Positions 1-16,086 of a DNA stretch of 57,970 bases are shown here, one piece after another. A program made the translations under genes and the position numbers. Origin of the DNA: a virus. Lineage: Duplodnaviria > Caudoviricetes. Below the pieces are notes generated by a model that saw only the letters and a list, made by a program, of their open reading frames with translations, did no database searches and had not been told where the DNA came from. How positions within the stretch are numbered: the first letter of the stretch is position 1; each line of letters opens with the position of its first letter. The stretch lies in the IMG/VR virus record IMGVR_UViG_3300008217_000010, positions 1 to 57,970 of that record. One strand, 5' to 3'.

Positions 1-126
1 ACGAAATCGGTTCAGCATAACGCATAGCCTACGCAATCCGTAGCTATCCCCTATCCATCCGTTCGATATCCGTTGTGTGATGACAGCAAAACGTTATGTC
101 AAACAGAACGGAAGTTCGCTATTCTA

Positions 127-143
127 GTGTTTGGTTAACAGCG
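127..143 (+). promoter_or_regulatory. Repeated intergenic motif GTGTTTGGTTAACAGCG (copy 1)
   Basis: Identical 17-mer at 568-584. Variants at 1070-1086, 3695-3711, 7859-7875, 12660-12676, 15314-15330, 57610-57626 and 57777-57793, all in + orientation. Confidence 0.7.
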
Positions 144-147
144 ATTT

Positions 148-342
148 TTGAAGGAGTTAATGGAAGATGTTTTAACGGATGAAGAACGTTCTAGGTACAT
201 TAAAGAATGGGCTACTCAAATCATAACTCTAGATGGAATGATTAAGAATGATGAACAGTTAGTAGACGCAATTCTTAGTATATCTGCTGACAGTTTGAAG
301 TTTGCAGTCGAACTACGGTTAGGTGAGAAGCCTGGATTTTAA
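148..342 (+). CDS. hypothetical protein
   Basis: ORF track. AAGGAG at 152-157 favours the ATG at 160 as start. Confidence 0.55.
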   Translation: MKELMEDVLTDEERSRYIKEWATQIITLDGMIKNDEQLVDAILSISADSLKFAVELRLGEKPGF

Positions 343-504
343 TAGTAAGAATACTAATAACAGTCAATGGGTAAGGCCCATTAAGGTATCACGAAGAACG
401 ATAGTAGTTATCATAACATTATGTCAATCTGATTATACTTACTATTGTCATTTTCCACTATTCTTTTAGAAGAACTTCGCATAGAAATTTTTCGAGAGGG
501 AAGA

Positions 505-538
505 ACTTGACATAACATTCTTCGACTTGACATAACAT
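505..538 (+). repeat. Direct repeat ACTTGACATAACAT x2 (20-bp period), with inverted partial copies at 91-102 and 416-427
   Basis: Read directly from the sequence. Confidence 0.8.
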
Positions 539-698
539 AAGAAACTTACGAATGATTAGATACTTTTGTGTTTGGTTAACAGCGGAATTTAAAGGTTAAG
601 CGCAAAAAAGAAAATAGCACTTGGTAATGAACAATGATTAAAGAAAGGTTGGTGTGCAATAACAGGAAAGCAAGAGAATGTGTGTTTCGCTTAGCCTG

Positions 699-757
699 AA
701 CAACAGTCTGTGAGTAAGCTCACACTGATGAGAGTTCTCCAACTCGAAACCGTTGTT
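699..757 (+). ncRNA. Type III hammerhead ribozyme
   Basis: AACAACA-GUC^, stem I UGUGAG/CUCACA, core CUGAUGA, stem II GAGUU/AACUC, GAAA, stem III CCGUUGUU (one A.C mismatch). Predicted cleavage after C708. Confidence 0.9.
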
Positions 758-771
758 GGAAAAGGAGTAAC

Positions 772-999
772 ATGGCATTTCCTATCCGTTGCTGGTCATG
801 TAAGAAAGTAATAGAGGATACTAATCAGGCTTTTTCGAATCATAATCGGAGTAATAACGAGTTAAGTCTATGTAGGGGTTCAGATGATGGAGAAATCTTT
901 ACCGGAACAATCTTTCAACTACAGTGTTCATGCGGAGAAAATACTGTAGTTGTACTTGCTGTTCTACCTGAATGGCAAAGAGGAGTTACGATAGCATAA
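772..999 (+). CDS. small zinc-ribbon protein
   Basis: CWSC...CSC, with AAGGAG RBS at 762-767. Confidence 0.7.
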   Translation: MAFPIRCWSCKKVIEDTNQAFSNHNRSNNELSLCRGSDDGEIFTGTIFQLQCSCGENTVVVLAVLPEWQRGVTIA

Positions 1000-1006
1000 T
1001 TGACTT

Positions 1007-1049
1007 CTTACTCGACTAGATTAGGAACTTCTTAGTCTGGTCGGGTAAG
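1007..1049 (+). other. 19-bp intergenic RNA hairpin (processing or terminator-like)
   Basis: CTTACTCGACTAGATTAGG / CTTAGTCTGGTCGGGTAAG with several G.U pairs. Confidence 0.6.
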
Positions 1050-1102
1050 TAGTGCATAATGCTACTTAAGTGTTTGGTTAACCGCAAAAAAGGAGGTGAG
1101 AA

Positions 1103-1303
1103 ATGATACCCGTATTTGATGTGAATGTTATCAATAGAGAGAGTTCACATTTCAAAGGAAAGCCTATCCTGATTTCAGCATGGTTAGAAGAAACAGAATA
1201 CTCGACTATATTCATTGAAGTCGAAGATGATGTTACTGGACATCGTGCGATTTGGGAAAGAAGTAAGGCTAATCCAGAATCTTGGCATCTATGTGCAGAT
1301 TAA
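1103..1303 (+). CDS. hypothetical protein
   Basis: ORF with strong AAGGAGGTGA RBS. Confidence 0.7.
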   Translation: MIPVFDVNVINRESSHFKGKPILISAWLEETEYSTIFIEVEDDVTGHRAIWERSKANPESWHLCAD

Positions 1304-1561
1304 AGAGGTGTAGTGATGAAAGTGGATGCATACTTTAATGGGACAAAAGTGAAGGTTGTTAGAACTGATACTTTAGTAGCATACATTAAGGTACATTGGA
1401 GAAAGGAACTGCTTAAGGTTAAGCGGCATCAATTAACATTCAAATAGAGGAGGAGTTATGGTTATTCGTGATGAAGCCAGATTTGAAAGAATCAGACGTA
1501 AGCATTTCCGTCGTATGAATCCACATCTTATAAGATGAATTGTCCTGACTAGGAGAAAAGA

Positions 1562-2212
1562 ATGGTTGAGAATCATCCAGAGATTCCTCAACTTGAACAA
1601 GATGAAGCTATTGAATCACAAGTAGTATTCGATAACGGATTCTGGTACGAGTTAACGGGGTCTCAATATAAATTAAAGAAATTCTTGACTAAACCTAACT
1701 TGCGTGGAATCACAGTTAGAGATTCTAGGGAGCGTGGTTACATCTTTGTTAAGAACTCAGATGAACAAGGATGGTTAGGAAAGGAGGTGGCAGACTGCAA
1801 TTTAAGGTACAAGAAACTGGATAATAGAGACCAACCAGTTGTCTTGTTAGCGGCATGTGGAGTAAAGGTAACGGTTCTCTTGACACATGAACGAGCATGT
1901 AATTCATGCAAGTCAGTTAAGGGACTAGCACCTAGAAGTCCACGTAATGCTAAGAATACACTTAGCAATAACAAGAATAGCTGTGAAGAAAAGACCGTGT
2001 TCTCGTTACCTGGCTTACCAGATATGAGTATGAATGGAGTACTGTCTTTAGCTAGACAGAGAGTAGATGAAACACTCGCTCTATCCGTTAAATATCAAGA
2101 TTTGGTAACGGCAATCGAAGGGATGCAGGCAATGGAGGAAGAGTTCAAGACTATAACTGAGTCCAGAGAACAACACATAGCCGCCATTGAGCATTTCATG
2201 AAGGAAAAGTAA
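1562..2212 (+). CDS. hypothetical protein, Cys/His cluster and C-terminal coiled coil
   Basis: 216-aa ORF, AGGAG RBS, HERACNSC motif. Confidence 0.75.
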   Translation: MVENHPEIPQLEQDEAIESQVVFDNGFWYELTGSQYKLKKFLTKPNLRGITVRDSRERGYIFVKNSDEQGWLGKEVADCNLRYKKLDNRDQPVVLLAACGVKVTVLLTHERACNSCKSVKGLAPRSPRNAKNTLSNNKNSCEEKTVFSLPGLPDMSMNGVLSLARQRVDETLALSVKYQDLVTAIEGMQAMEEEFKTITESREQHIAAIEHFMKEK

Positions 2213-2224
2213 TGATTAAAGGAC

Positions 2225-2265
2225 AGTTGAGAGTCCCCATTTGAAGTAGAGTGGGGACTTTAACT
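2225..2265 (+). other. 16-bp intergenic RNA hairpin
   Basis: AGTTGAGAGTCCCCATT / AGTGGGGACTTTAACT with one bulge. Confidence 0.6.
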
Positions 2266-2325
2266 CGTTTGTTAAGCGGTAGTCTATCAAGTACCGTTTA
2301 TAGATTAGTTAAAGGAGGTGAGATT

Positions 2326-2499
2326 ATGCCTAAAGCATGGGTGTCCATTAACCCATCCAATGAAGATGCTCCAATAACATTAAGCACAAGTGCTGGTTCG
2401 GAGCAGTTTACTGCGGATGAAGCAGGTAGGTTAAGGGACTTGCTAGACGAAGCGGTCAACTACCAACCCCAAGAAGAAATACCAATAGGAGATGTGTAG
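2326..2499 (+). CDS. hypothetical protein
   Basis: AAGGAGGTGA RBS before ATG 2326, a shorter start than in the ORF track. Confidence 0.7.
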   Translation: MPKAWVSINPSNEDAPITLSTSAGSEQFTADEAGRLRDLLDEAVNYQPQEEIPIGDV

Positions 2500-2811
2500 A
2501 TGTGGAATTGGTTAGGAGTGCTGTTAAAGCGCAAAGGATACTATACAGACAAAGAAAGATATTGTGAGGACTGTGGAGCAGACTTAATTGGGAATGACCC
2601 ACACACTCCAGATTGTCAAATCACAATAGAGGAGGTAGCAGATAACAGATATACTCCATCATGTTTCAAGTGTTCTGAAATGTGGTTTGAGTATTACAGA
2701 ACAGATAATACGCAAGGAGATAGAAATAAAGTCTATTCTCGTATCCGTCAACATCAAGCTGGCTCAGTCTGTACTCGTGATGTAACGGATGCTAGAATCA
2801 AGGTTGCGTAA
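2500..2811 (+). CDS. zinc-finger hypothetical protein
   Basis: CEDC...H..DC and CFKC...H...C. Abuts the upstream gene. Confidence 0.7.
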   Translation: MWNWLGVLLKRKGYYTDKERYCEDCGADLIGNDPHTPDCQITIEEVADNRYTPSCFKCSEMWFEYYRTDNTQGDRNKVYSRIRQHQAGSVCTRDVTDARIKVA

Positions 2812-3038
2812 TGTCTGAAGATGGATTACCAGCACCAAAGAAATTCAAATACGCACAATGGAATAAGAAAGATACCTTGACAACAGCAGAGGATATAGTT
2901 AAGGCGAGGAAGTCTATTGAAAGAACGTTAGGAATCCGTTGTCGAACAAGACAAGATGTAGAACGTATCCTAAGTCAGTACCTAGGAAGTGATTCCACTG
3001 GTACTATGAGGAAATATGTCAAACCAAGACCAAGGTAG
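2811..3038 (+). CDS. hypothetical protein
   Basis: TAATG translational coupling. Confidence 0.65.
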   Translation: MSEDGLPAPKKFKYAQWNKKDTLTTAEDIVKARKSIERTLGIRCRTRQDVERILSQYLGSDSTGTMRKYVKPRPR

Positions 3039-3420
3039 GCCAACGGTCTATTTAAAGGAGATATCATCTACGGATGATATGTTTAAAGGGCAAGGGTTAA
3101 CCGTTTATAGCGGTGAAGATTTTAGCTCTTTAAGGATAACTCAATTCATCCCTCAAGAGGATGATGTTGTTCTTTGTGGTGGATGTAATGTTAATCTCTA
3201 TCCAGAGAAAGGTACATTAGTATTTGATTCAATTGAAAAAGTTGCATTAAATACTCCATACGATATCTTCCATAAAGAGTGTATCGGAAACATAATTAAC
3301 GATTGTGAGGTGATAAGAATAGAAACAAGACTATGCGAAAGGAAGGATTGTGGTAAAGAACTTCCTTATGGTTGGTACGCTATCTATTGCTCAAACGAAT
3401 GTGCATTTCAAGACGCATAG
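3016..3420 (+). CDS. hypothetical protein with C-terminal zinc ribbon
   Basis: CGGC...HKEC and CERKDC...YCSNEC. Confidence 0.7.
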   Translation: MSNQDQGRPTVYLKEISSTDDMFKGQGLTVYSGEDFSSLRITQFIPQEDDVVLCGGCNVNLYPEKGTLVFDSIEKVALNTPYDIFHKECIGNIINDCEVIRIETRLCERKDCGKELPYGWYAIYCSNECAFQDA

Positions 3421-3429
3421 GAGGAAGAA

Positions 3430-3624
3430 ATGGCATATGAAATGAAGCCTGTCGTAATGACTCAAAATTTAAAGAAAGCTATGAGTGCAAATAAATCTGT
3501 AACTTCATCTGAAGCTGCGGTTGAGCGTGCTCACCGTAAGTTAAATGAAGCTATAGGTATTCTTACTCTAGATGAGTGTACTTGGTACGGTTATCTTACT
3601 ACCCAAAAGAGTAGACTCACTTGA
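3430..3624 (+). CDS. hypothetical protein
   Basis: GGAGG RBS. Confidence 0.65.
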   Translation: MAYEMKPVVMTQNLKKAMSANKSVTSSEAAVERAHRKLNEAIGILTLDECTWYGYLTTQKSRLT

Positions 3625-3649
3625 CATTAAAGGAGATTTAATGTAGAAT
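3621..3649 (+). promoter_or_regulatory. sigma70-type promoter
   Basis: TTGACA-17 bp-TAGAAT. Confidence 0.6.
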
Positions 3650-3735
3650 AGTGCGACTTGATTCTGAGAGTCGTGTCGCACTTCTCTATATTAACGCTAT
3701 GGTTAACTGCGGATTTATATGGAAAAGGAGGGCGC

Positions 3736-3968
3736 ATGGTATATGATAAAGTCAGAGTCCAGAAACTAATTGACTCATTAATAGGTGATAAATGGAAGGA
3801 AGAACGCAATGTTATTGCTCAAGTAAGAAACCAAGAATTGAATTACCTAGAGCTCTAGTCGTAATGATGGAAACTGTCCAACATCATTATATAGAAGAAC
3901 CATCTAAACTTAAACAATATAAAGATATATTTGAAGAAATATCTCAAATTAGAGAGGTAGCAGAATGA
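3736..3968 (+). pseudogene. frameshifted hypothetical gene
   Basis: RBS+ATG at 3736. Adding 1 nt in the A-run near 3829 gives an ORF ending in an ATGA overlap with the next gene (span 233 nt = 3n-1). Confidence 0.55.
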
Positions 3969-4345
3969 GTCAATGGACTCATATAGCAGGTATAATACGA
4001 GTAGACTCTATTGGGATGAATGTAGGTAGAGATACTGAACAAGTTCTCAATATGATGATACAAGGATTAGCAGATATACCAACTGGAAGTGAAGGACCAC
4101 TTCATTATAGAGTATTAAATCAGCTTCAAGGAAATGCTCTATCTTGGGGTAATATTATCTTTTGGGATGATTTAAGAGACTTTGGTAGTGAGGATGATTT
4201 ATAAAAAGTAAAATATTGGTGGGAATACTTGCATCAAGAATTCAGATGGACCGAGATTTGCTATGCTCGACAGAGTGTACTTGAAATTCAAATTGAAGGT
4301 CAAGATGAACTTATAGTTTTGCACAATCCATCTATAGAGGAATAA
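3965..4345 (+). pseudogene. phage hypothetical gene (MSxWTH...GSEG) with in-frame TAA
   Basis: After TAA at 4202-4204 the frame stays open (KVKYWWEY...ARQSVLEIQIEG) to a TAATG overlap at 4343-4347. Confidence 0.65.
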
Positions 4346-4481
4346 TGCTTAATTGGTTCGTGTTAGGACTTAGTATCTTATCTATGTTAATAGCGTTATA
4401 CTCTGTTTATAAATTACGGAGAGCATTGCAAACACTTAAACGTATGCAAAGAACATATCATTGGAGGTCATACGAAGAAGA

Positions 4482-4697
4482 ATGACAACAGCAACTCTAG
4501 TTACTGAAAGACAGACTACAGACTATATATCTGAAAGGAGGTGCGAAGGATGTCCGCGATGTCAAGACCCTAATGCTGGATTCTGTAAGTTAAGCCATCC
4601 TAAATGGAAGAACTTACATCCTATATGTCGAAGGTGTGGGCATTGTGTGTTAAGAGGAAGCCATGCTGATAATACAGATGACTTAAAGGAGACGTAA
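4482..4697 (+). CDS. Cys-rich zinc-finger protein
   Basis: CEGCPRC...CRRCGHC. Confidence 0.65.
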   Translation: MTTATLVTERQTTDYISERRCEGCPRCQDPNAGFCKLSHPKWKNLHPICRRCGHCVLRGSHADNTDDLKET

Positions 4698-4812
4698 AAT
4701 GGACTTTAAATCTTTTATACTTGGAATAGTTATTGGATTTATTCTTGGATTTATTGCCTTTAGTGTAGCTTGGATAGCTATTATTGAAACTTTTAAATTA
4801 TAAGGAGAAAGA

Positions 4813-5316
4813 ATGGGACAATACTTTAAACATCTACGTGCTACTCCTTGGATTCCAAGCTTTGAGTGGATTGAAACTTCTGATGAAGCAGCAGATGTCA
4901 TCAATAAACCACATGAAGATTATCCAAATAAAATTCCTTTAACCAAATTAGCAATAGAGACTATACCTCCTTCAATTACGATATCTAACTTACTCCTTAC
5001 ACATATGAGAATATTTGTAGGTGAGGACTTTGCTGGATTGCTTCGTAATAAAAATGTAAGGGTAGGCAATCATACTCCTCCAAAATGGCAAGATGTAGTT
5101 AATCATATGGTTGAACTTCAAATGATTCATCGCCCTACATTAGAGCAAATAGGAGACGTTAGCCTTCAGTTAATAGAGAATTTGAAGGATTGGTATGAAG
5201 ACTTTGAAACCATCCATCCATTTGAAGATGGAAACGGTAGAGTTGGAGGTGTAACAATAGCAATCTATTCTCATACTTGGTATCCAGAAAAAGGATATTT
5301 AGTACCATTACAATAA
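4813..5316 (+). CDS. Fic/Doc-family protein
   Basis: HPFEDGNGR motif and upstream AGLLRNKNVRVG...PP flap. Confidence 0.9.
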   Translation: MGQYFKHLRATPWIPSFEWIETSDEAADVINKPHEDYPNKIPLTKLAIETIPPSITISNLLLTHMRIFVGEDFAGLLRNKNVRVGNHTPPKWQDVVNHMVELQMIHRPTLEQIGDVSLQLIENLKDWYEDFETIHPFEDGNGRVGGVTIAIYSHTWYPEKGYLVPLQ

Positions 5317-5324
5317 GGAGTGAT

Positions 5325-5630
5325 ATGCCAGTACCAGAGATAAATCCAAGTGTTTACTTAACTAAAGGTTGGTGTCAAGGAGCATTTGAGAAGATAATAG
5401 ATGGAAAAAGGTTTTATTGTTTCTTAGGTGCTGTTAACCAATCTTATATAGGAATTAGAAACTTTGAAGAAGGAAAAACACAATTTGACTTTAAGAGGAC
5501 TGCCAATGAAATATTAATTGAAAGAGGATTTCAAGACCCGTTAGTAACAGTTTGGCAAGATGCCATAGAAAGAACACAAGAAGAAGTAGTAGAACTTGCT
5601 TTAGAAATCGAAGAGAGATTAGGATTATGA
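5325..5630 (+). CDS. phage hypothetical protein (DUF6197-like)
   Basis: GWCQG...CFLGA...WQD..RTQEEV pattern, AAGGAG RBS. Confidence 0.6.
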   Translation: MPVPEINPSVYLTKGWCQGAFEKIIDGKRFYCFLGAVNQSYIGIRNFEEGKTQFDFKRTANEILIERGFQDPLVTVWQDAIERTQEEVVELALEIEERLGL

Positions 5631-5776
5631 GTATTTGGGGACTAGAGGAGATTGAAGGGATGGACTTAGGTAAATACAAGATGGCTACTATCTATCATAC
5701 CAAAGATGATGTGGACTTGATTCTAACGAGGATGGAAAGGCTTTTATTACAATCAAGACCACACAGAAAGAAGTAG
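5627..5776 (+). CDS. hypothetical protein
   Basis: ATGA overlap with the upstream gene. Confidence 0.5.
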   Translation: MSIWGLEEIEGMDLGKYKMATIYHTKDDVDLILTRMERLLLQSRPHRKK

Positions 5777-5814
5777 AGAAGGTAGGTGAAACACTTAAAT
5801 ACTACTCAGATAGA

Positions 5815-6036
5815 ATGGCACTATCCAAGTTTGCTTGGATATCTACTAAAGAAAGAGGTCATAAAGATAGAAATACTAAAAGTCTAGGAGATACATGGAA
5901 TATAGCTCATAGAAATAAGCAAATTGCTACAGCAAAGTTATATGGTACTACACTTGTAGTAATATCCTTTCCAGAGGATGAAAGTTTAAGGCATTGCTAC
6001 TTAAATCATGCCTACTTGAATTTCCAGAGGGCATAG
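5815..6036 (+). CDS. hypothetical protein
   Basis: ORF track. Confidence 0.5.
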   Translation: MALSKFAWISTKERGHKDRNTKSLGDTWNIAHRNKQIATAKLYGTTLVVISFPEDESLRHCYLNHAYLNFQRA

Positions 6037-6062
6037 AGTTTTCAATTTACTAAGGATTACTA

Positions 6063-6269
6063 ATGACTCCTAAACAAAGAAAAACTTTGATGATAAGGTG
6101 CGGAGAGTGGTTCAGAAGAACATATTCAACTCAAGTTGAAGCAATGGATATCGCTGATGAAGTTAATTCTATCTTAGAAAAGGAATACAGAGGAACTTAT
6201 TGTAGTGTTCAATCCACTCCAATGGGATTTATTCTATTACTTAGTAATTCTGAATTTGGTAAGGTATAG
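6063..6269 (+). CDS. hypothetical protein
   Basis: ORF track. Confidence 0.55.
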   Translation: MTPKQRKTLMIRCGEWFRRTYSTQVEAMDIADEVNSILEKEYRGTYCSVQSTPMGFILLLSNSEFGKV

Positions 6270-6355
6270 AATGAAAAAGGATGTTGTGATGAAGGACAGA
6301 CTTCATGCGTCTGTTAATTCGCAAGGCAACTTGATATTAAATTCGAGTTGTAAAT

Positions 6356-7210
6356 ATGGAAGGTGAAGATAATTCTTATCAAGTAGTAGGCAACGCTGAC
6401 TTTATTCAGATAGTCAACTTGATGAAGGATGCAAAACCTTTTCCTCATGTGTTAATATGGGGACCAAGTGGAGCAGGTAAGACAACAATAGGTAAGTACA
6501 TATCGAACGTAGTAGGAAGTAATGTAACAAGTTATTATGGTCCTGACTTAGATAGAATGACTTTATCTATGATTCTTCAATCACAATGGGAGAATGATGT
6601 ACTTATTATTGATGAGATTCATGGATTAAGTAAGGGATTACTTGAATCTATTTACCAACCACTAGAAGAATTTCAATTTAAGGGAATGAGTCTAACTCCC
6701 TTTACTATGATTGGGATAACTACAGACTTAGATTCCCTTCCAGATGCTCTACAAAGAAGATTTAGACTTGTTTATAGAGTTCAACTCTACGATACACAAG
6801 AGTTAATGGATGTATGCTTCGGTCTTATCAAGAAAGAATGGTTCGATGATGGGATTGAAGCTGTGGCAGAAATGTCAAGAGGAAGTCCTGGTATAGTAAG
6901 GAATCATCTCCAACTTATCGAATCTATGTTTGAGATAGAAAAGGTAGATTTTGAGACAGTTCAACATTATCAAAGACTCAAGCATGTAAACGATATTGGA
7001 TTAGAAGAAATAGACTTAGAATATCTTCGTGTGTTAAGAGCATATGATGTTTTATCTTTATCTACTCTATCTTCAATATTAGTTGAACGAGAGAAGGCAA
7101 TCGAAGGAGGTATAGAACCATTCTTATTTCGATTAGGTCTTGTAGTTAAGACATCTAAAGGTAGACAGCTTACAATTAAAGGACAAAACTATCTAAGAGA
7201 TTTAGACTAA
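6356..7210 (+). CDS. ruvB: RuvB-like AAA+ branch-migration ATPase
   Basis: Walker A GPSGAGKTT, IIDEIH, PFTMIGITT, ALQRRF, SRGSP and C-terminal wHTH IEPFL...KTSKGR. Confidence 0.85.
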   Translation: MEGEDNSYQVVGNADFIQIVNLMKDAKPFPHVLIWGPSGAGKTTIGKYISNVVGSNVTSYYGPDLDRMTLSMILQSQWENDVLIIDEIHGLSKGLLESIYQPLEEFQFKGMSLTPFTMIGITTDLDSLPDALQRRFRLVYRVQLYDTQELMDVCFGLIKKEWFDDGIEAVAEMSRGSPGIVRNHLQLIESMFEIEKVDFETVQHYQRLKHVNDIGLEEIDLEYLRVLRAYDVLSLSTLSSILVEREKAIEGGIEPFLFRLGLVVKTSKGRQLTIKGQNYLRDLD

Positions 7211-7440
7211 TGGTTAAGCCTATTACAGAAGAAGACCAATTAGCACATGATACGGCTAAAGCTATACTTGAAGGTACTATTCCAGATTATACTATAAGAG
7301 GATTTGTGATGTATAGAATAAATCTCTCTGTAGCTATTTTCGATATAGAGGATGAAGAATGGTGGAAATATATAGGTCACGAAGCAACTATTCAAGATGC
7401 TCTTGATAGAATATATAGAGATCATTTAGATAGGAGGTAG
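7210..7440 (+). CDS. hypothetical protein
   Basis: TAATG coupling. Confidence 0.65.
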   Translation: MVKPITEEDQLAHDTAKAILEGTIPDYTIRGFVMYRINLSVAIFDIEDEEWWKYIGHEATIQDALDRIYRDHLDRR

Positions 7441-7441
7441 T

Positions 7442-7624
7442 GTGACTCCAAATGAAGTATCTCCAATGGTAGGTTCTGATTTTTACTTTCGTGCTAAGGT
7501 TCTTTCGGTTAAATATGTGAAGGAGCAAATCGTATTACGTCTTGAGGAATATAATACGAAGTGTAAATTCACTCTTAAATTCTCGCAACAGATGTTGCCT
7601 GGAGTAGATGATGGAGATTCCTAA
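7442..7624 (+). CDS. hypothetical protein
   Basis: GGAGG RBS. Confidence 0.6.
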   Translation: MTPNEVSPMVGSDFYFRAKVLSVKYVKEQIVLRLEEYNTKCKFTLKFSQQMLPGVDDGDS

Positions 7625-7838
7625 TTATATACTTAGAAATTTAGAACTTCCTTGTCCACCAGAGACAAATGGAGTTCACTACTGGATATTAGATGAAGCA
7701 TCAAAAGGAGGAACAAAGAATAACAGTAGTGGTGAGTGTTGCAAATGTCACATCACAAAGGAGGAGTTCTTCGAGAACAGTATCATAAAAGACTCCAAGG
7801 AAAACTTACAACTTAGATTTAACGAGAAAAGAGATTAA
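7608..7838 (+). CDS. small Cys/His protein
   Basis: C...H.W...CCKC pattern. Confidence 0.6.
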   Translation: MMEIPNYILRNLELPCPPETNGVHYWILDEASKGGTKNNSSGECCKCHITKEEFFENSIIKDSKENLQLRFNEKRD

Positions 7839-7892
7839 TTTTTTGAAGTTGGGTTTTTGTGTTTAGTTAATAGCGAAAAAAGGAGTAACAAA

Positions 7893-9407
7893 TTGGAAAT
7901 TAAAGACCAAATAAAAGAAATGGTAAACTCTGGCTTTTCTGTGTTCTATGTATACACAGAAGATGAGGTTAGTGTCGAGAGACAACTAACTATGATGGCA
8001 GAAGAAAGAGAGGCAGGTATAGGTAGGTGGACTGTCTTAGGTGATAATCCTTTAGATGATTTTCTAGGGGCGGAGTTCCCAAATAACTTCTTTGTGATTT
8101 GCATCAACCCTCATTTGAATCTTGATTCTCCTGGAGTAATGCAGACCATAAAAGACCAAGCAGATAAATGGAAGGCAACGGACATTCATGTATTCTTGTT
8201 ATGCAATGATAAGAAAATACCACCAGAGGTTAATCGTAACCTCACATATATAGAGTGGGGACTTCCTGATAAAGATGAGCTTGGTGATAAGCTAGAGTTT
8301 GTTAGAGAATCTGCTCTAGATGAGCTACCTGACCTTCCAGTTTTTGACAATGGAGAAAAAACTGCTCTTGTTAAAGCAGCATTGGGGTTAACAAGTCAGC
8401 AGGCTGAAGATGCTTTTGCTCTTTCCTTGATACAAAATCAAGCGTTTGTGCCAAATGTCGTAACTAGAATTAAAGCAAACGAATATCTAAAAGCTGGATT
8501 GATGGAGCTTGAGGAACCTAAACCTTTTGAATCATTCAAGGGATACACAGAACTCCAAGAATATATGGTTCAATCTAAGTCAGCTTTCTATCAAGAGTCT
8601 AAGTATGGCTTATCTCCTCCTAAAGGCATACTGTTAACTGGAGTTCCAGGGGTAGGAAAGACTCTTGCTTCACAAGCAATCGCATCTATGTTCGGACTAA
8701 TGCTACTAAAGGTAGACCTTGGAAAGCTATTCGGAGAACTGGTAGGACAAACAGAGTCTAAAACCAGACAACTAATTGCCATAGCAGAAAGAATGGCACC
8801 TATCGTATTAAGATTCGATGAAATAGAGAAACAAATGGGTGGTATGGGAGTTAGCTCAGGTGACAGCGGAGTAAGTTCCAGAATCCTTGCTTCTCTATTA
8901 ACATGGATGCAAGAACGTACTGCTCCAGTCTATACAATAATGACTGCCAATGATGTAAGCAGATTACGACCAGAGATGCTCAGAAAAGGTAGGATAGATG
9001 AGATATTCTTTCTTGACCTGCCTGACAAACAAGAACGGTCAGATATATTTGAGTATCATCTTGAGCTTAGGGTTCCAGAGGTCAACTGGAGTGGATATGT
9101 TAACGACCTCAATGAAGCCCATAACAAGACTAAAGGATGGTCAGGTGCAGAGATTGAGCAAGTAGTAATACAGACTCTGAGACGTGCTGAACGAAGTGAT
9201 ATACATATTTCAGAGGATTTACAGTTCTTTATATTAGACCTTATAAATGAAATAGATAAGACCGTACCGTTATCCGTTATACGAAGGGAGGATATAGATG
9301 CAATAAGAAAATGGGCTGTAGATAATAATGCTCGATTAGCATCTAAGAATGAAATCATCGAGAAAGCCCAAATAGAGACTCGAAGAAAATTATCAATATC
9401 AAAATAA
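7893..9407 (+). CDS. Ycf46-type AAA+ ATPase
   Basis: GILLTGVPGVGKT, DLGKLFGELVGQTE, FDEIEK, TAND, LRKGRIDEIFFLDLP, preceded by a degenerate N-terminal AAA-like region. AAGGAG precedes TTG 7893. Confidence 0.85.
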   Translation: MEIKDQIKEMVNSGFSVFYVYTEDEVSVERQLTMMAEEREAGIGRWTVLGDNPLDDFLGAEFPNNFFVICINPHLNLDSPGVMQTIKDQADKWKATDIHVFLLCNDKKIPPEVNRNLTYIEWGLPDKDELGDKLEFVRESALDELPDLPVFDNGEKTALVKAALGLTSQQAEDAFALSLIQNQAFVPNVVTRIKANEYLKAGLMELEEPKPFESFKGYTELQEYMVQSKSAFYQESKYGLSPPKGILLTGVPGVGKTLASQAIASMFGLMLLKVDLGKLFGELVGQTESKTRQLIAIAERMAPIVLRFDEIEKQMGGMGVSSGDSGVSSRILASLLTWMQERTAPVYTIMTANDVSRLRPEMLRKGRIDEIFFLDLPDKQERSDIFEYHLELRVPEVNWSGYVNDLNEAHNKTKGWSGAEIEQVVIQTLRRAERSDIHISEDLQFFILDLINEIDKTVPLSVIRREDIDAIRKWAVDNNARLASKNEIIEKAQIETRRKLSISK

Positions 9408-9412
9408 AAAAC

Positions 9413-9440
9413 TTGACAAGTCCCCATAAAACTGTATAAT
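9413..9440 (+). promoter_or_regulatory. sigma70-type promoter
   Basis: TTGACA-16 bp-TATAAT. Confidence 0.75.
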
Positions 9441-9476
9441 TAAGGGTGGCAGGTGGGGACGGGGAGGGATGTGCCA

Positions 9477-9719
9477 ATGCAAGAGTTCTTTATATTCAGT
9501 TGGATAGATAATAATGTGACCTTGATAGAAGCTTATCCAGTACATAAAGGATTATCACGTCAATACTTTATAAACCATTGTATAAGTTGTACAGATATCA
9601 ATGGTTGGGCTTTAGTCTCTTCACCATCTAGGAATCAAGCTAAGAAATCTGCTTATATCAATTGGATTAACTCAACAGGAAAAGGATGGAACCGTTATTA
9701 TGACAACAAGCTCAGATGA
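9477..9719 (+). CDS. hypothetical protein
   Basis: GGAGG RBS downstream of the promoter. Confidence 0.55.
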   Translation: MQEFFIFSWIDNNVTLIEAYPVHKGLSRQYFINHCISCTDINGWALVSSPSRNQAKKSAYINWINSTGKGWNRYYDNKLR

Positions 9720-10071
9720 GCCAGATGTTGATTACGGATACACTCACTTAAGGGAAGAGTATCAAAAGTTAGAGGCTGACTCTGAGTTTGCTGAATTTCT
9801 CGTGTTGTTAACAGGAACTTATGATGAACCCGTGGACAGAACATTCGAGGATATTCAAAAGTTCAGAACAATAGCTACAATGGTATATACTAATAAGGAG
9901 ATAGAGTTTATAAGACATCTAGAGCCTGGACAAATCTGGACTACGGTAAATATGGGCAAGACCTTTATAGGTGTTGTTCAAAGAAAAGTTAACCGTACTG
10001 TATATCTAAGAGATAACTTAGGTAATGTATACCATGCAACAGCAGACCAATTCAGAGAGAGGTTACAATAA
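9700..10071 (+). CDS. hypothetical protein
   Basis: 123-aa ORF. Confidence 0.65.
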   Translation: MTTSSDEPDVDYGYTHLREEYQKLEADSEFAEFLVLLTGTYDEPVDRTFEDIQKFRTIATMVYTNKEIEFIRHLEPGQIWTTVNMGKTFIGVVQRKVNRTVYLRDNLGNVYHATADQFRERLQ

Positions 10072-10317
10072 ATAGCTACATTAGAAGATATCACGATATG
10101 TGATTCTTGCAAAGCAAGGTTATCAAATAAACATCTTCCTGGAGACTTGAGTTTTGAGGTGGACTCTGACAAATCCCTTTGGTGGAGATATAACTCTGGA
10201 ATTGGTAATGTCTTTGGTAGTATTGGAATGTTCGCTATCCATAATACTTGCTTAGATACTATGCGTGACAGGTTAAGGTCTGAGGGAAGAATGGAGCCGT
10301 TAGTCAGTATTTATTAG
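10072..10317 (+). pseudogene. zinc-ribbon gene with ATA at the start position, paralog of 25713-26026
   Basis: GAGAGG RBS then ATA GCT ACA. Open frame TICDSC...FAIHNTCLDTMRDRLR. Confidence 0.55.
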
Positions 10318-10544
10318 AGCTAGAAAGGTTAATTGTTCTAGGAGAAACTAAATCAGATTTGAGGAAAATGAGAATACAGTGATCACAAGTACCTGGCGTA
10401 AGAAACCACCGCATCCATCGACTAAGAAAAGACATGGTAATACTTTGTTGAAGGTTGACCCAAAACGAAAACGCAAGTTCTTAACACAAGAACAACTACG
10501 TGCCAAGCGACATCGAAAGAAGTTAAAAAGGAATAGAAATAAGA

Positions 10545-10720
10545 ATGAATGATGTAGAAACACATCCAAAGTATTGGGATTGTGAATGCGAGAATGATTA
10601 CATTCACGAGAAAGGAGTTCAAGATTATTGCTCTATTTGCAGAGTAATAGTAATGAGCAACCTGACAGCCGAGTCAATGAGTTAATCGAAAAAGGTATCT
10701 TATTAAGAGAGGATGAATAA
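10545..10720 (+). pseudogene. frameshifted phage gene (YWDCEC..YIH...QPDSR)
   Basis: The two halves are in different frames, joined near 10641. Span 176 nt, ending in a TAATG overlap. Confidence 0.6.
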
Positions 10721-11661
10721 TGGTTGAGACAACACACGCACCAGTTAGGGACAAAGAAAAGAGTATCTTTGTTGATGGGGTGTTATTTGATATTGACATC
10801 CATTGGTGGAAAGGTTGGACTAAGTTAGAGCTTGAGGATATAGATAAAGAGGAAGGTGAACTGCCTGCTATCTTTAAGCTTGGAACTAAACGGATACTTA
10901 ACCCAGAGGCGTTCAAAGACTTCTCTGTTATAGAGTCCAGGGCAAGGACGTTGGTTGACGACCTGTGCTTCCCTTTTATGATATCTACTGTGAGGTTTGT
11001 TCCCTTTGCCACACTACCTCAGTTAGTAGAAGAGTTAACTAAGCTACAGAAAGCATTTTACGCTTTCGTAGAACAGTTTGTCTTTTACTATGATGATAAC
11101 AAGTTGTCGTTTATGAATAGATATCCTAAGTACGCTCTTAAACTGAATAAAAAATATCCAGACACAATGGAAATTAGAGGTAAGTTCTACTTCAGTTGGA
11201 AGTTATTTGAAATGTCCATGCCAAAGGAAATAAAAGCTGAATTCTTATCTGACTCAGAAAGAGAAAGGCTACAGAAACTCTTTACTGAAAGTCAAGATAA
11301 GGTTAACAGCCAATTAGAGGGTTGGGTTGACCGCGTTGGTATGGCAATGAGAAAGGAAATTGGTTTAGTATGCAAGAACATGAACGACTCATTAGAGAAA
11401 GGAAAAGTGATACGTGAATCAACTCTGGAAAGGACTCGTGAGACTATCAAACGCTTACGTTCCATGAATTTTATTGGTGACCCTCAAGTAGAGGACATGC
11501 TCTCTGATTTAGAACGGAACGTTCCTGGTAACTTTGATAGAGATAATGCTTTAGTGATGGCTCCATTTAAGGGAACACTCCAGGCTATCATGGCAGAGGC
11601 AGGAGACCTTACAGATATAACAACTTCAACTGGAGAATACAAACGAAAGTTTAGGTTATAA
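10720..11661 (+). CDS. DUF3150-like protein
   Basis: DIHWWKG..KL, LGTKRIL, FVP, YP...EIRGKF.F.W, L..MNF.GD pattern. Confidence 0.7.
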   Translation: MVETTHAPVRDKEKSIFVDGVLFDIDIHWWKGWTKLELEDIDKEEGELPAIFKLGTKRILNPEAFKDFSVIESRARTLVDDLCFPFMISTVRFVPFATLPQLVEELTKLQKAFYAFVEQFVFYYDDNKLSFMNRYPKYALKLNKKYPDTMEIRGKFYFSWKLFEMSMPKEIKAEFLSDSERERLQKLFTESQDKVNSQLEGWVDRVGMAMRKEIGLVCKNMNDSLEKGKVIRESTLERTRETIKRLRSMNFIGDPQVEDMLSDLERNVPGNFDRDNALVMAPFKGTLQAIMAEAGDLTDITTSTGEYKRKFRL

Positions 11662-11664
11662 GTT

Positions 11665-11874
11665 ATGATTGACCAAGTAATAAGCGATATCGACAAAGAG
11701 ATATTAGAGCAGTTATGTAACGATTGGACTCCACAAGAAATTACAGAGATAGTCAATCGTAGTTATGATAATATAGTGTATAGACTTAAGCTCTTACAAT
11801 TAAAATTCGACGTAGAAACAAACGTTGGTTTAGTTTGCAAGTTAGTTAAATTAGAATTATTGGAGGTTAAGTAA
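11665..11874 (+). CDS. LuxR-type HTH protein
   Basis: D.EIL..L...W...EI..........V..L..KF.V....LV pattern. Confidence 0.65.
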   Translation: MIDQVISDIDKEILEQLCNDWTPQEITEIVNRSYDNIVYRLKLLQLKFDVETNVGLVCKLVKLELLEVK

Positions 11875-12176
11875 TGCCTTGTTGGATGCGAGGAGAACTA
11901 AGGTTAACAGACTTTGAGAAACTACAAGCAGAAGCTAATAAGCTAGGGTTAGAACTGTTGAAACAAAGCCCTGAAATTATCACCATATTAAAGAATGGTG
12001 TCGCTGTGGCTACTGCTACTGAAGCAGAGATAATGAAAGGTGCTAATCAATATTTTAAGGAGACTGTTAAGAACTACACGATTCAACAAGTCAAGGTTGC
12101 TGCTATGAGGAATGGTTGGAAGTTTGAGCAGGTCAAAGCAGAAGATGGAAAAATCAAATTGAGGGTGAGTGAATAA
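11874..12176 (+). CDS. DUF1257/Ycf35-like protein
   Basis: D...L...A..LG N-terminus and Y....V...A...GW.FE.....DGKIKL C-terminus. Confidence 0.6.
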   Translation: MPCWMRGELRLTDFEKLQAEANKLGLELLKQSPEIITILKNGVAVATATEAEIMKGANQYFKETVKNYTIQQVKVAAMRNGWKFEQVKAEDGKIKLRVSE

Positions 12177-12385
12177 TGCCATTCTTAGTTTTAATACAAG
12201 ATGCTCCAGATGATACTAAATGGTCTAAGGAGAGTATAGTTCTTTCTACATTAACAACCCCTGAACAAGTTCAAGCAGAATGGGGAGAGAAAGGAAAGAA
12301 CATCATTATTTGGAGTCTACCAAACTTAGGTTTCTTGGATGAGTGGCCTGTTGAGTTACCAGTAGACGAGGAGTTAGACCGCTAA
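12176..12385 (+). CDS. hypothetical protein
   Basis: TAATG coupled at both ends. Confidence 0.65.
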   Translation: MPFLVLIQDAPDDTKWSKESIVLSTLTTPEQVQAEWGEKGKNIIIWSLPNLGFLDEWPVELPVDEELDR

Positions 12386-12576
12386 TGGCTAAAGTAATTG
12401 AAATCACAATCGGAGATAATGGGAGTATTGAGGTACAAGGTTCTGGTCTTGGCCCCAATGAAAGGATTGAGGACGTAGCTAAGTTCCTTCTAACGAACTT
12501 AGGCGATGTTACAGAAACCGGACACAAACATCAACACACTACTAAGGAAGATATTACGATACAGAATATAGGTTAA
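12385..12576 (+). CDS. DUF2997-like protein
   Basis: IEITIGDNGSIEVQGSG.G...LG.V pattern. Confidence 0.65.
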   Translation: MAKVIEITIGDNGSIEVQGSGLGPNERIEDVAKFLLTNLGDVTETGHKHQHTTKEDITIQNIG

Positions 12577-12625
12577 CCTCTATAGATGGATTGTCGAATA
12601 ATACCGATTATTCACCACAAAACGC

Positions 12626-12655
12626 TTGACGGTTTGTAGGGAGCTATGTTATTCT
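12626..12655 (+). promoter_or_regulatory. sigma70-type promoter
   Basis: TTGACG-18 bp-TATTCT with extended -10 TG. A GGTTAAC motif copy lies at the expected start site. Confidence 0.5.
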
Positions 12656-12794
12656 ATAGATGTTAGGTTAACAGCACGCGAAAATAGAATCCAACATCAT
12701 CCAACACTTTAAGTTGATGGGAGGAGAAGTGAAATAAAAGGCAACACTATTCAGCTAATTCTGGAAGGACCAAATTAAGATTAAAGGAAAAATC

Positions 12795-13370
12795 ATGAGT
12801 ACTGACCAAGAACCCCAGGATGAAGCCCAAGAGCAAGATAGCTCTGTAGCAACCGCCAAAGCTCCTGTTGAGGAGAAGCCTATTGACATTAGTTTTCCAC
12901 GGAAGATAGGTGACAACACCTTTCAGACTCCAGAGGAAATGCAAGCGTTCCTCGACAAAATGACGGCTAGCACCAAGGAAGCACGTCAAGTTCTAAAAGC
13001 TGTAAGGCCAGGTCGTCCACCGAGTCAGAAGAAAGTCTTGGCTGAGGCTACTGCTGATATTCTGAACAAGCACATGACCAAAGACCTGCGTGAGAAGCTT
13101 GGCACAATTGATGAGGATATCGCCATTCGTGTCATGTTCGAGAAAGAAACTAGTACGTTTGTCGCTCCCACTCCAAAACCTAGAGAAGGTGGAGATGGTG
13201 GTGGGCCTCGCGGTGGTCGTCCATTAGTAGTGGACGGTAAAGAGTATCCATCAGCAAAGAATGCTCGGGATACTTTGCATACTGACACTGTTGGAAACCA
13301 ACAAAACCGTAAGGCCATCATATCTTATCTCCGTGGTAAGGAACACACTATAGAGAAAGACCAAGATTAA
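12795..13370 (+). CDS. putative DNA-binding protein (AT-hook-like RPGRPP, C-terminal DGKEYPSA..A module)
   Basis: Stand-alone gene with its own promoter and double terminator. Confidence 0.7.
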   Translation: MSTDQEPQDEAQEQDSSVATAKAPVEEKPIDISFPRKIGDNTFQTPEEMQAFLDKMTASTKEARQVLKAVRPGRPPSQKKVLAEATADILNKHMTKDLREKLGTIDEDIAIRVMFEKETSTFVAPTPKPREGGDGGGPRGGRPLVVDGKEYPSAKNARDTLHTDTVGNQQNRKAIISYLRGKEHTIEKDQD

Positions 13371-13377
13371 GAGTAAA

Positions 13378-13448
13378 AAGGGTCGGTGTTGCCTACCTGA
13401 CCCTTCGTTTTGGGGGAGTGGACGCATGACTGCTCCCCCTTAAATTTA
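13378..13448 (+). terminator. tandem intrinsic terminator hairpins
   Basis: AAGGGTCGGT/ACCTGACCCTT followed by CGTTTT, then GGGGGAGTGG/CTGCTCCCCC followed by TTAAATTT. Confidence 0.7.
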
Positions 13449-13474
13449 GCCTGAGAACTGTACAATGAGGGGAA

Positions 13475-13924
13475 ATGACTTCAACTCCAGAGGAACCTAA
13501 AACAGTTGTCCAAGAACCAGTGTCGAAGAACGTATCAAGCCGTGGTCAGCATCGGATGGGAAGGCAAATGCGTATGGATATTGAGGTAAGAATACCTGTA
13601 GAAGAAGTCTTACCTAATAGATTAAAAGATGATATCCTCATATTGTTTGATGAGGATTTCTTGCCTTCTATCAAAGGTGTAAAGGATTGGTTAATAGAAG
13701 TACATCAAGCACTTGATTCATACTGGCGTCGTAACTCCAAGAAAGAAGAGATTCTACGAAAGAACCTAGGTTTTCTTGAAGGTATGAGGTATATGTTAAC
13801 TGTCTGTCTAAGTGAGTTAACGCTAACTCAAGGTGAGGACTTAGCTAAAAGAATAGAGGAGGACTTGGGGCCACTACTTGCAACGTTCTGTGCAGACTGT
13901 AAGAAAATAATAGAGGATGAGTAA
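13475..13924 (+). CDS. hypothetical protein
   Basis: GAGGGG RBS, 149 aa. Confidence 0.7.
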   Translation: MTSTPEEPKTVVQEPVSKNVSSRGQHRMGRQMRMDIEVRIPVEEVLPNRLKDDILILFDEDFLPSIKGVKDWLIEVHQALDSYWRRNSKKEEILRKNLGFLEGMRYMLTVCLSELTLTQGEDLAKRIEEDLGPLLATFCADCKKIIEDE

Positions 13925-14038
13925 AATATAAAGTGTAAAGTAAAAGGGTGTCGCTTATTAGTTCATAGTAATATTTGTAAGTTATGCTGCGACCACTACA
14001 TGTTAGATAAGTAGTATGACAACACTCTTACCAATCAT

Positions 14039-14245
14039 ATGGAAGCAAGGAGACTTGTGTTATTATCAGAATATGGAGTGATGGTAAAACAGGTATGTCT
14101 TAGACTTGGTACAGATTTCATTACGTTCGAGATTTCAAGGTTTGAACGAACACCGCAGATTGTGAGTCTAAAAGACCTTAGACCTCCTCATAGAATCGGT
14201 GCTACAGTAGAAGTATATCATCATCACAATAGTCCTCTTAATTAG
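14039..14245 (+). CDS. hypothetical protein
   Basis: ORF track. Confidence 0.4.
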   Translation: MEARRLVLLSEYGVMVKQVCLRLGTDFITFEISRFERTPQIVSLKDLRPPHRIGATVEVYHHHNSPLN

Positions 14246-14492
14246 GAGCAAGACAGAATAGATAGAGAGCCTCTTGATATAGAAAGGAAGTGGGGGCCTT
14301 TAGGAAAGAAGAACACAGATAAGATGGAACTGGGTGAGGGTGAAGAACAAGATGAAAGACCAGATGATATAAGGTCTGTCCAAAGTGATCGTCCTGTTCC
14401 AGGCTCACATTTAAGGACTCCAGATACTAAGAGAGAGGATTAAAGTGTTACGACAACCAAAAGGGCCATATGTATGAAAGCCAGAATCATTA

Positions 14493-14816
14493 GTGATAAT
14501 AGAATGTCCTTTTAGGTGTGGTCTACAACAAGAAAGATTCAAGATTAACAAACACATAAGGTACTGCGTTAATAACCCTGAAAATAAGAAGTATAAAGGT
14601 CAAGCTAGTAAAGAGAATTATGGTCTTAGGAATATAGATAGGAAAGACCCTGACTCTCATGTTCCTCCTAGAGACGAGGAAGAAGAAATCTCAAAACCTG
14701 ATGTGCCAGATACAAGTAACCACGTACATACTCCAGGTCAGACTTGCTTCCAGTGTAAGTATGAGGCAGCATTAGAAGTAGTTGCTGCTATGAATATACA
14801 AGTGAGTCCACAGTAA
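14493..14816 (+). CDS. zinc-finger hypothetical protein
   Basis: CPFRC...H...C and H.H....CFQC. Confidence 0.6.
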   Translation: MIIECPFRCGLQQERFKINKHIRYCVNNPENKKYKGQASKENYGLRNIDRKDPDSHVPPRDEEEEISKPDVPDTSNHVHTPGQTCFQCKYEAALEVVAAMNIQVSPQ

Positions 14817-14886
14817 TGAGTACATGGCTTTGTGTAGCATATGGTAAACAGATACCATACCAAGAACATAAAGAACACGTTAAATT

Positions 14887-15261
14887 GTGTGGAATAAAAA
14901 GATAATGGTTCTAGTAGACATTACAGAAGATATTAGAGAGGGTAGGTATCCACCACCTCTCTTTAACAATCGCAATGCAAAGGTCTTTGGTAGACGTATC
15001 TTTGTCAAAATTGGTGAGCGTATACTCGTAGGCAACATACAGTATATGCACGAGAGCCAGCAACTAATTATCTTCGTAAATTTCAACTGGCGTAAGAAGT
15101 CAGACAACATTGGTAACAATACCAAGGTGCTCATCAAAACATATTCTGTTCCATCTGGAGTCGATATTGACTTATTCATGAAGCGTGTCAGAGAGGAAAT
15201 GATTAAGGAACCTCAGACAGATGGAATGAAGTGGAGCTTCGACGCCACAAGTCTGCTGTAG
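14887..15261 (+). CDS. hypothetical protein
   Basis: 124-aa ORF followed by a T-rich tract. Confidence 0.6.
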   Translation: MWNKKIMVLVDITEDIREGRYPPPLFNNRNAKVFGRRIFVKIGERILVGNIQYMHESQQLIIFVNFNWRKKSDNIGNNTKVLIKTYSVPSGVDIDLFMKRVREEMIKEPQTDGMKWSFDATSLL

Positions 15262-15333
15262 TTTTTTTCTTTTTACATTTTTTTACGAACGTCCCTTTAG
15301 TGGAATCTTAACACTTAAGGTTAATAGGCGAAA

Positions 15334-16035: not shown

Positions 16036-16086
16036 GTCCTGAATACGGAAAAGCTGTCTAAAAAACGGGAAGCCCCTTGGAGTACA

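Follow-up and report, generated by a model that had tools for sequence, protein, structure and literature searches.

Phage and prophage DNA is rich in hammerhead ribozymes, and what such a ribozyme would accomplish directly in front of a phage gene is the question raised by the leader of ORF 772, an open reading frame (ORF) at the left end of the uncultivated marine tailed phage IMGVR_UViG_3300008217_000010, which has a double-stranded DNA genome. This IMG/VR record is linear and 57,970 bp long, with a completeness of 67% as estimated by CheckV, and the whole of it, referred to here as the window, was analyzed. Positions 699 to 757 of its + strand hold a complete type III hammerhead followed closely by the Shine-Dalgarno (SD) sequence of ORF 772. 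We ask whether this motif is genuine, whether its placement recurs in other phages, and what cleavage at this site would do.

A type III hammerhead in the leader of ORF 772

The first-pass annotation of this DNA had described a complete type III hammerhead that ends 4 nt before the ribosome binding site (RBS). Direct reading of positions 680 to 780 bears out both statements, with every coordinate of the element correct, positions 758 to 761 separating stem III from AAGGAG, and the ATG of the ORF lying at 772. The parts of the element are as follows.

699-707, + strand: stem III, 5' strand (AACAACAGU), placed by direct reading, Rfam alignment, and descriptor
706-708, + strand: GUC cleavage triplet, with the cut predicted 3' of C708 from what is known of the family
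709-724, + strand: stem I hairpin UGUGAG-UAAG-CUCACA, six perfect pairs (U709-G714 with C719-A724)
715-718, + strand: loop I, UAAG, closing stem I
725-731, + strand: core CUGAUGA (C3-A9), placed by direct reading and Infernal alignment
732-745, + strand: stem II hairpin GAGUU-CUCC-AACUC, five perfect pairs (G732-U736 with A741-C745), with the G10.1-C11.1 pair present
737-740, + strand: loop II, CUCC, closing stem II
746-749 and 749-757, + strand: core GAAA (G12, A13, A14, A15.1), then the 3' strand of stem III
762-767, + strand: Shine-Dalgarno sequence AAGGAG, placed by direct reading

The invariant core is complete, as both direct reading and the Infernal alignment place CUGAUGA at 725-731 and GAA at 746-748. 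The cleavage site follows the N-U-H rule (G706, U707, C708), and the A15.1-U16.1 pair is formed by A749 and U707. All of the pairs adjacent to the core are intact, namely, U709-A724 (1.1-2.1), G732-C745 (10.1-11.1), and C750-G706 (15.2-16.2). Stem III, formed by 699-707 with 749-757, has 8 pairs in 9 positions and one A705.C751 mismatch (16.3/15.3). Loops close stems I and II, and the 5' and 3' ends of the element leave through the open stem III, which is the type III topology.

In an Infernal search, the Rfam family RF00008 (Hammerhead_3, clan CL00010) aligns with 701-755 over its full length (model positions 1 to 54 of 54) at 35.6 bits. The corresponding E value is 2.8e-6 in a search of 301 nt and 5.3e-4 when the whole window is compared with 4227 Rfam families, among which RF00008 is the sole family at an E value of ≤1. 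When this family was searched alone on the record, the E value was 1.3e-7, and none of 14 control genomes gave a match at an E value of ≤0.001. We also wrote our own descriptor, consisting of UH, a stem I hairpin, CUGANGA, a stem II hairpin, GAAA, and stem III, and its type III form found exactly one site in the window when both strands were scanned. A second ribozyme was found in the window neither by Rfam at an E value of ≤1 nor by the type III descriptor or the descriptors for all types (I, II, and III).

The element shares with RF00008 the full core, the GUC triplet, and three helices with an open stem III; it differs in belonging to a double-stranded DNA phage instead of a viroid-like RNA, in having one A.C mismatch in stem III, and in lacking a recognizable loop-loop contact. 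It also scores below the gathering score of the family (48.5), and hence is not reported at the gathering threshold, a point that counts against it. How much this point should count can be judged from another phage contig, IMGVR_UViG_3300010163_000313 (L002), which has two type II hammerheads on the minus strand, at 2402 and 2887. They lie 485 nt apart with a 129-amino-acid ORF between them, each stands directly before AAAGGAG and an ATG, and paired changes in stems I and III distinguish one from the other. The same Rfam library gave neither of them at an E value of ≤1, and the gathering threshold is therefore conservative for phage hammerheads. We therefore take the subthreshold score as weak evidence against hammerhead identity. 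One of the L002 copies has the same UGUGAG/CUCACA stem I, GUC triplet, and CUGAUGAG as the window element, but both have a permuted topology with an open stem II, and the proteins encoded downstream are unrelated to that of the window. The shared 6-bp stem I is probably within what chance would produce among many hammerheads, and homology is not implied by it.

That the motif might be a look-alike unrelated to hammerheads is extremely improbable. Besides the Rfam score, the one result that leans toward it is that lax descriptor sites (stem I of 4, stem II of 3, and stem III of ≥4 of 8) were present in 135 of 2000 dinucleotide-preserving shuffles of the window. A strict site of comparable quality (stem I of ≥5, stem II of ≥4, and stem III of ≥6 of 8) appeared in none of the 2000. 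The E values against all families and against RF00008 alone speak in the same direction, as does a genomic setting shared with dozens of other phage hammerheads. We conclude that the motif is real and no chance match; its assignment to the type III hammerheads has good support from sequence and statistics rather than from covariation or activity.

Hammerheads before Shine-Dalgarno sequences in other phage contigs

IMG/VR was scanned for the pattern CTGATGAG, 8 to 24 nt, CGAAAC, 5 to 14 nt, and AAGGAG, which selects for an SD sequence downstream of the core. This gave 77 matches at 75 loci, which the descriptor divided into 50 complete type III hammerheads, 8 type I hammerheads, and 19 matches of neither type. 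As a control, the 90 nt upstream were shuffled, upon which 102 of 3750 trials passed as type III. Removal of 7 exact duplicates from the 50 left 43 distinct type III hammerheads, 42 of which are followed by a start codon 2 to 14 nt past AAGGAG. The commonest features among the 43 are a stem I of 6 bp (22 cases), a loop I of 4 nt (15), a stem II of 4 bp (32), a loop II of 4 nt (12), and the GUC triplet (38). With its 6-bp stem I closed by UAAG, its 5-bp stem II closed by CUCC, and its GUC triplet, the window element is modal in stem I, in the length of both loops, and in the triplet.

A second scan ignored the downstream sequence and used the pattern CTGATGAGGCC, 3 to 8 nt, and GGCCGAAAC. There were at least 118 distinct matches, and the 118 that were listed, which are those analyzed here, comprised 67 type I hammerheads, 43 type III hammerheads, and 8 matches of neither type. 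Each was examined for an adjacent gene start, defined as an SD-like word and the start codon of an ORF of ≥40 codons within 45 nt downstream. Among the matches listed, such a gene start was present for 30 of the 43 type III and 39 of the 67 type I hammerheads (69 of 110 together), compared with 183 of 2360 positions chosen at random on the same strands. The random positions are mostly coding, so that compact intergenic spacing may explain part of this closeness to gene starts, and the comparison is weaker to that extent.

The layout of a hammerhead followed by an SD sequence recurs in many phage contigs. Text searches of the literature brought up no paper specifically about phage hammerheads located ahead of SD sequences, which is not proof of absence. 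As a separate observation, a 320-kb viral contig (L042) has two type I hammerheads on its + strand, at 204 and 719, about 515 nt apart.

Probable leader trimming and the evidence for and against it

The explanation that we consider probable is that the element is a self-cleaving type III hammerhead that trims the leader of ORF 772 and gives the mRNA a fixed and probably nuclease-resistant 5' end. The features on which this proposal draws, in addition to the ribozyme, are the following.

527-556, + strand: promoter-like site TTGACA, 18 nt, AATGAT, with 10 of 12 consensus matches, at the second tandem CTTGACATAACAT copy
127-139, 568-580, and 1070-1082, + strand: the 13-nt motif GTGTTTGGTTAAC, with three exact copies in the window, all at its far left end
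678-713, + strand: possible upstream ORF of 11 codons, with an ATG at 678, the stop codon TGA at 711-713, and AGGA about 9 nt before the ATG
772-999, + strand: ORF 772, encoding the 75-amino-acid orphan protein P0001, which has cysteine pairs

A + strand transcript would start near 560-570, downstream of the TTGACA at 527, giving ORF 772 a 5' leader of roughly 200 nt. Stems I and II, as local hairpins, would fold during synthesis of the RNA, and stem III would close once 749-757 emerges. The core would then catalyze an internal transesterification 3' of C708. It is characteristic of hammerhead cleavage that it produces a 2',3'-cyclic phosphate and a 5'-OH end. At this locus, about 145 nt of upstream leader ending in the cyclic phosphate would be removed, and the remaining mRNA would have a 5'-OH at U709, with its first 16 nt forming the stem I hairpin and the SD sequence lying 53 nt downstream. 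ORF 772 and any cotranscribed genes would in this way become independent of the upstream RNA, making the element a natural counterpart of RiboJ. We propose the fixing and protection of the 5' end and the uncoupling of ORF 772 because of the analogy with RiboJ and the precedent of the haloviruses HF1 and HF2, both of which are discussed below.

Cleavage would trim an unusually long leader. The gap at 470-771, of 302 nt, is the longest between the listed + strand ORFs of positions 1 to 6000. The promoter-like site at 527-556 is a candidate start for the transcript that bears the hammerhead. GTGTTTGGTTAAC gave 7 matches in the window at ≤2 mismatches, a number reached in none of 100 shuffles. Downstream of the copies at 127 and 1070, the SD sequence and ATG of ORF 161 and ORF 1103, respectively, come within about 20 nt, while the copy at 568 is followed by a leader of about 190 nt that ends in the hammerhead. 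Because GTGTTTGGTTAAC precedes an SD sequence and ATG at its other two sites, its position here suggests that transcription begins near 560-570 and continues through the ribozyme, and the motif may serve the earliest genes as a common transcript leader or as an operator. The tandem CTTGACATAACAT copies lie at 506-518 and 526-538 (+ strand). Inverted relatives of this repeat were noticed on the minus strand at 91-103 and at about 414-428, and the repeats surround divergent promoter-like sites, at 527-556 (+ strand) and 427-398 (minus strand).

Perreault et al. (2011, PMC3088659) described hundreds of bacterial hammerheads of all three topologies, many of them near prophage genes. Prophage hammerheads often flank single genes and cleave both in vitro and in Escherichia coli, and the processing of polycistronic phage transcripts has been proposed as a role of phage hammerheads (PMC3088659). 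The window element resembles these phage hammerheads in being DNA encoded, intergenic among phage genes, and co-oriented with them. It differs from them in being a single copy in 58 kb, whereas those often occur in pairs or triplets flanking a gene, and in having no evident pseudoknot, which about 40% of the published hammerheads use (PMC3088659). The hammerhead of the haloviruses HF1 and HF2, termed HHphage, precedes by 13 nt the start codon of the first ORF of an early polycistronic transcript, and the mapped 5' end of this transcript falls no more than 3 nt from the cleavage site (PMC3088659). It thus shares with the window element the position a few nucleotides before a start codon and the proposed role. 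However, HHphage is a structural variant analogous to HHmeta that needs high Mg2+ and belongs to an archaeal virus, whereas the core of the window element is canonical and its host is suggested to be bacterial.

In RiboJ constructs, as at this locus, a promoter, a leader, a type III hammerhead, a short spacer, and an RBS follow one another, and cleavage removes the variable upstream leader; in E. coli, RiboJ raised protein levels 2- to 10-fold and transcript levels about 2-fold (PMC6206723). The window element occupies the position of such an insulator, with the weak promoter-like site at 527-556 and GTGTTTGGTTAAC at 568 upstream and the SD sequence at 762-767 downstream, all on the same strand, and by analogy it may work like RiboJ. 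RiboJ is engineered, reportedly from the ribozyme of a plant satellite RNA with an added hairpin, and has no relation by descent to the window element. The first-pass annotation had suggested that the phage processes its early mRNA into a defined and possibly more stable leader. Such an outcome of cleavage is plausible, fitting as it does both the HF1/HF2 precedent and the recurrent layout described above.

Several observations weigh against this proposal, and the competing structures available to the RNA are foremost among them. Taken alone, 699-757 has the hammerhead as its minimum-energy fold, at -13.2 kcal/mol. Within 695-775, the hammerhead fold reaches -14.4 kcal/mol (-14.9 kcal/mol with extra pairs) versus -20.4 kcal/mol for a competing fold that pairs 698-701 with 734-737, 738-743 with 755-760, and 695-697 with 763-765, the last of which is part of the SD sequence. 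In the ensemble computed for 563-800, stems II and III have a probability of about 0; stem I is stable, with pair probabilities of 0.79 to 1.0. The gap of 5.5 kcal/mol between the two folds compares with a median of 1.5 kcal/mol in the 43 phage type III hammerheads, exceeding the gaps of 41 of them and being exceeded by that of 1; in these models, this copy folds less favorably than most of its peers. We regard the competing fold as the main evidence against fast, constitutive cleavage. This objection is tempered because nearest-neighbor energies take no account of core tertiary structure and because stems I and II, as local hairpins, would form before their competitors are transcribed.

Other objections concern the element itself and its surroundings. 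The loops UAAG and CUCC can form at most 2 Watson-Crick pairs with each other and no pseudoknot of ≥4 bp, as judged by inspection, which does not reach noncanonical contacts. In many representatives, a loop pseudoknot is critical for speed at 0.5 mM Mg2+ (PMC3088659). Stem III has the A.C mismatch at 15.3-16.3. The promoter-like site at 527-556 is weak, in that it has 10 of 12 matches and shuffled sequence has sites of this kind just as readily. The product of ORF 772 has, among 5.8 billion proteins, a single cluster consisting of itself and no other homologue, and so offers no protein anchor for synteny.

Comparison with other copies and relatives gives the hammerhead no comparative support. 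A sister contig (L086) is the same phage and is identical over 300-1500 bar a 10-bp indel near 496-505, with the whole hammerhead unchanged; the 10 bp that it lacks lie directly before the first CTTGACATAACAT repeat. Contigs of runs X12 and X16 have 0 differences across the whole hammerhead, a contig of run X15 has 0 differences from 725 onward, and contigs of four DNA runs show no difference in the parts that they cover. The hammerhead sequence is therefore reproducible across data sets, and, with all other copies identical, there is no variation in which covariation could be seen. Related loci were sought by an ATPase alignment, which gave 80 loci of which one (L004, also G001) was close, and with ORF 1562 or the ATPase as single queries, which gave nothing. 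The ATPase of L004/G001 is 54% identical, and 2 of 22 queried left-arm ORFs are in common. This contig has none of the small ORFs of the window, and neither Rfam, nor RF00008 run on the complete record, nor our descriptor found a hammerhead in it. Pattern scans with stem I, stem II, or stem III fixed (the last in metagenomes) gave no variants of this hammerhead; they returned, respectively, the type II hammerheads of L002, a type I hammerhead in L003, and the sister contig L086. The L003 hammerhead, at 1619-1663 on the + strand of a phage contig, lies beside tRNA genes (HH9 model, 26.4 bits).

These objections would be accounted for if the element were a hammerhead by descent that is slow, conditional, or decaying, with little cleavage in vivo and little or no role. 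We consider this unlikely. The energy gap above that of 41 of the 43 comparators, the near-zero probability of stems II and III in the long leader, the A705.C751 mismatch, the want of a recognizable loop-loop contact, the Rfam score under the gathering score, and the lack of conservation support among copies and relatives all point toward it, and both inactive hammerhead-like RNAs and slow phage variants have been reported (PMC3088659). It is countered by the invariant core and the three core-adjacent pairs, whose intactness would not be expected after drift, and by the fact that one mismatch in a stem III of 9 positions passes the acceptance rules given in PMC3088659. The two reservations about the folding energies, the neglect of core tertiary structure and the probable early formation of stems I and II during transcription, count against a slow copy as well.

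The same alternative fold could have a use. In a gated ribozyme, cleavage would be switched by this fold or by ribosomes on the upstream ORF at 678-713, so that a factor or the state of translation would decide whether the ORF 772 mRNA is processed. The stable alternative fold is incompatible with stems II and III and has part of the SD sequence base paired, and the upstream ORF, which is preceded by AGGA, spans stem III and the cleavage site and has its stop codon inside stem I. Translation of this putative ORF, to speculate, would unfold stem III. Regulated cleavage has also been raised for phage hammerheads (PMC3088659). Neither the fold nor the ORF is backed by conservation, however, and both can arise by chance in 80 nt, the fold of 695-775 having a z score of -1.34 with 22 of 200 shuffles folding at least as well. 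No ligand-binding element was recognized by Rfam in the window. We consider gating improbable. A bolder combination, in which hammerheads before SD sequences are widespread RiboJ-type insulators that phages use deliberately to give single cistrons a fixed 5'-OH end capped by a hairpin and independent of upstream RNA, and in which the window copy is gated by its unusually strong competing fold and the upstream mini-ORF, with processing dependent on folding kinetics or translation, is put forward tentatively, as a possibility that we doubt more than we believe.

An active ribozyme could also serve another purpose, if its 5'-OH end marked the mRNA for decay or if the release of the upstream RNA of about 145 nt were the point of cleavage. 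The glmS ribozyme and RNase J1 of Bacillus exemplify decay via a 5'-OH end. The role of self-cleaving ribozymes encoded in bacterial and phage DNA is called unresolved in a 2019 review (PMC6765202) and in a 2026 paper (PMC13725137). As for a released RNA, the 5' fragment 563-708 was considered as a structured RNA and rejected, being no more structured than shuffles (z score of +0.90, with 170 of 200 shuffles folding at least as well) and matching no Rfam family. As for decay, the 3' product begins exactly with the 6-bp hairpin of stem I, and a 5'-terminal hairpin generally protects against decay that depends on the 5' end. A purpose of this kind is, in our estimate, about as improbable as gating, and trimming of the leader to a fixed, protected 5' end is the reading that we retain.

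Setting in the phage genome and meaning of the arrangement

The hammerhead has the same orientation as all neighboring ORFs, and from its position and orientation ORF 772 would be an early gene. The first 25 residues of P0001 (MAFPIRCWSCKKVIEDT...) weakly resemble the N-terminal zinc motif of Rpo10/Rpb10, with a score of 22.7 bits against Pfam RNA_pol_N, below the cutoff of 26.9, and PDB matches at E values of about 0.3. Two other calls over the motif were set aside. A minus-strand ORF at 638-778 (46 amino acids) is treated as spurious, the longer neighboring ORFs in 1-6000 being on the + strand, and a reading of stem I as a terminator was dropped, as the one call of this kind at stem I concerns the minus strand and has a poor T tract.

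The first-pass annotation had gone on to suggest that the hammerhead, together with long hairpins between later genes, forms an RNA-level control system of the early operon, and this part is not supported. A scan of 1-12000 for inverted repeats with loops of ≤12 nt gave only 6 imperfect palindromes, terminator-like hairpins in 1-20000 numbered 10 compared with 10.8 expected, and, as described above, Rfam and the descriptors found no second ribozyme. Among the terminator-like hairpins in the left arm, the strongest, at 13412-13439 (+ strand), has 10 pairs, 7 of them G-C, and a T-rich tail; it lies 3' of ORF 12795-13370 and is the only long GC-rich hairpin that we noticed between replication genes.

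The left arm, from 1 to about 33 kb on the + strand, has many small ORFs followed by genes of replication and nucleotide metabolism, among them genes for a RuvB-like ATPase, an AAA ATPase, a DinG/XPD-like helicase, ThyX, a DNA methylase, a PD-(D/E)XK nuclease, and the large subunit of ribonucleotide reductase. The right arm, at about 35 to 57 kb on the minus strand, has structural genes, including those for portal-like, tape-measure-like, and baseplate-like proteins. Here, an ORF of 895 amino acids at 49136-51823 (minus strand) has matches to families of head maturation proteases as well as of major head proteins (phrog_29592, 133, 4523, and 371) and appears to be a fused protease-capsid gene. 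Among GenBank phages, this phage has no close relative. GenBank phage DNA gave no match for 1-6000 in a near search or for 560-1000 in a distant search, and the best match among GenBank phage proteins, for the 531-amino-acid ORF at 52604-54199, is to a Microcystis phage at 27.7% identity. DNA of this phage is present in marine and other aquatic metagenome runs from 19 studies, and no RNA run is listed among the sequencing runs that contain the stretch.

Perfect sigma-70 consensus promoters (12 of 12 matches; TTGACA, 16 or 17 nt, TATAAT) are found on the gene strand (+) at 9413-9440 and 16007-16035, the second with an upstream TG. One lies directly past the AAA ATPase gene, and the other lies at the start of the helicase gene. 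Together with the RuvB-like gene, such sigma-70-type matches suggest a bacterial host. An archaeal host, which the Rpo10-like N terminus of ORF 772 brought to mind, was rejected, since that similarity is below threshold and the RuvB-like gene and the perfect sigma-70 promoters favor a bacterium.

In summary, phage hammerheads as such were already known, and one lying 13 nt before an early start codon has been published (PMC3088659). With the phage uncultivated, direct work in vivo is limited. The window nevertheless offers a single copy whose core is canonical and whose position is well defined, and hence a compact construct with which to approach the question of whether such ribozymes fix and stabilize 5' ends. 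The recurrent pattern of a hammerhead followed by an SD sequence is more useful than this single case, and if it holds true under a control matched for intergenic position, leader processing would look like a general strategy of phages.

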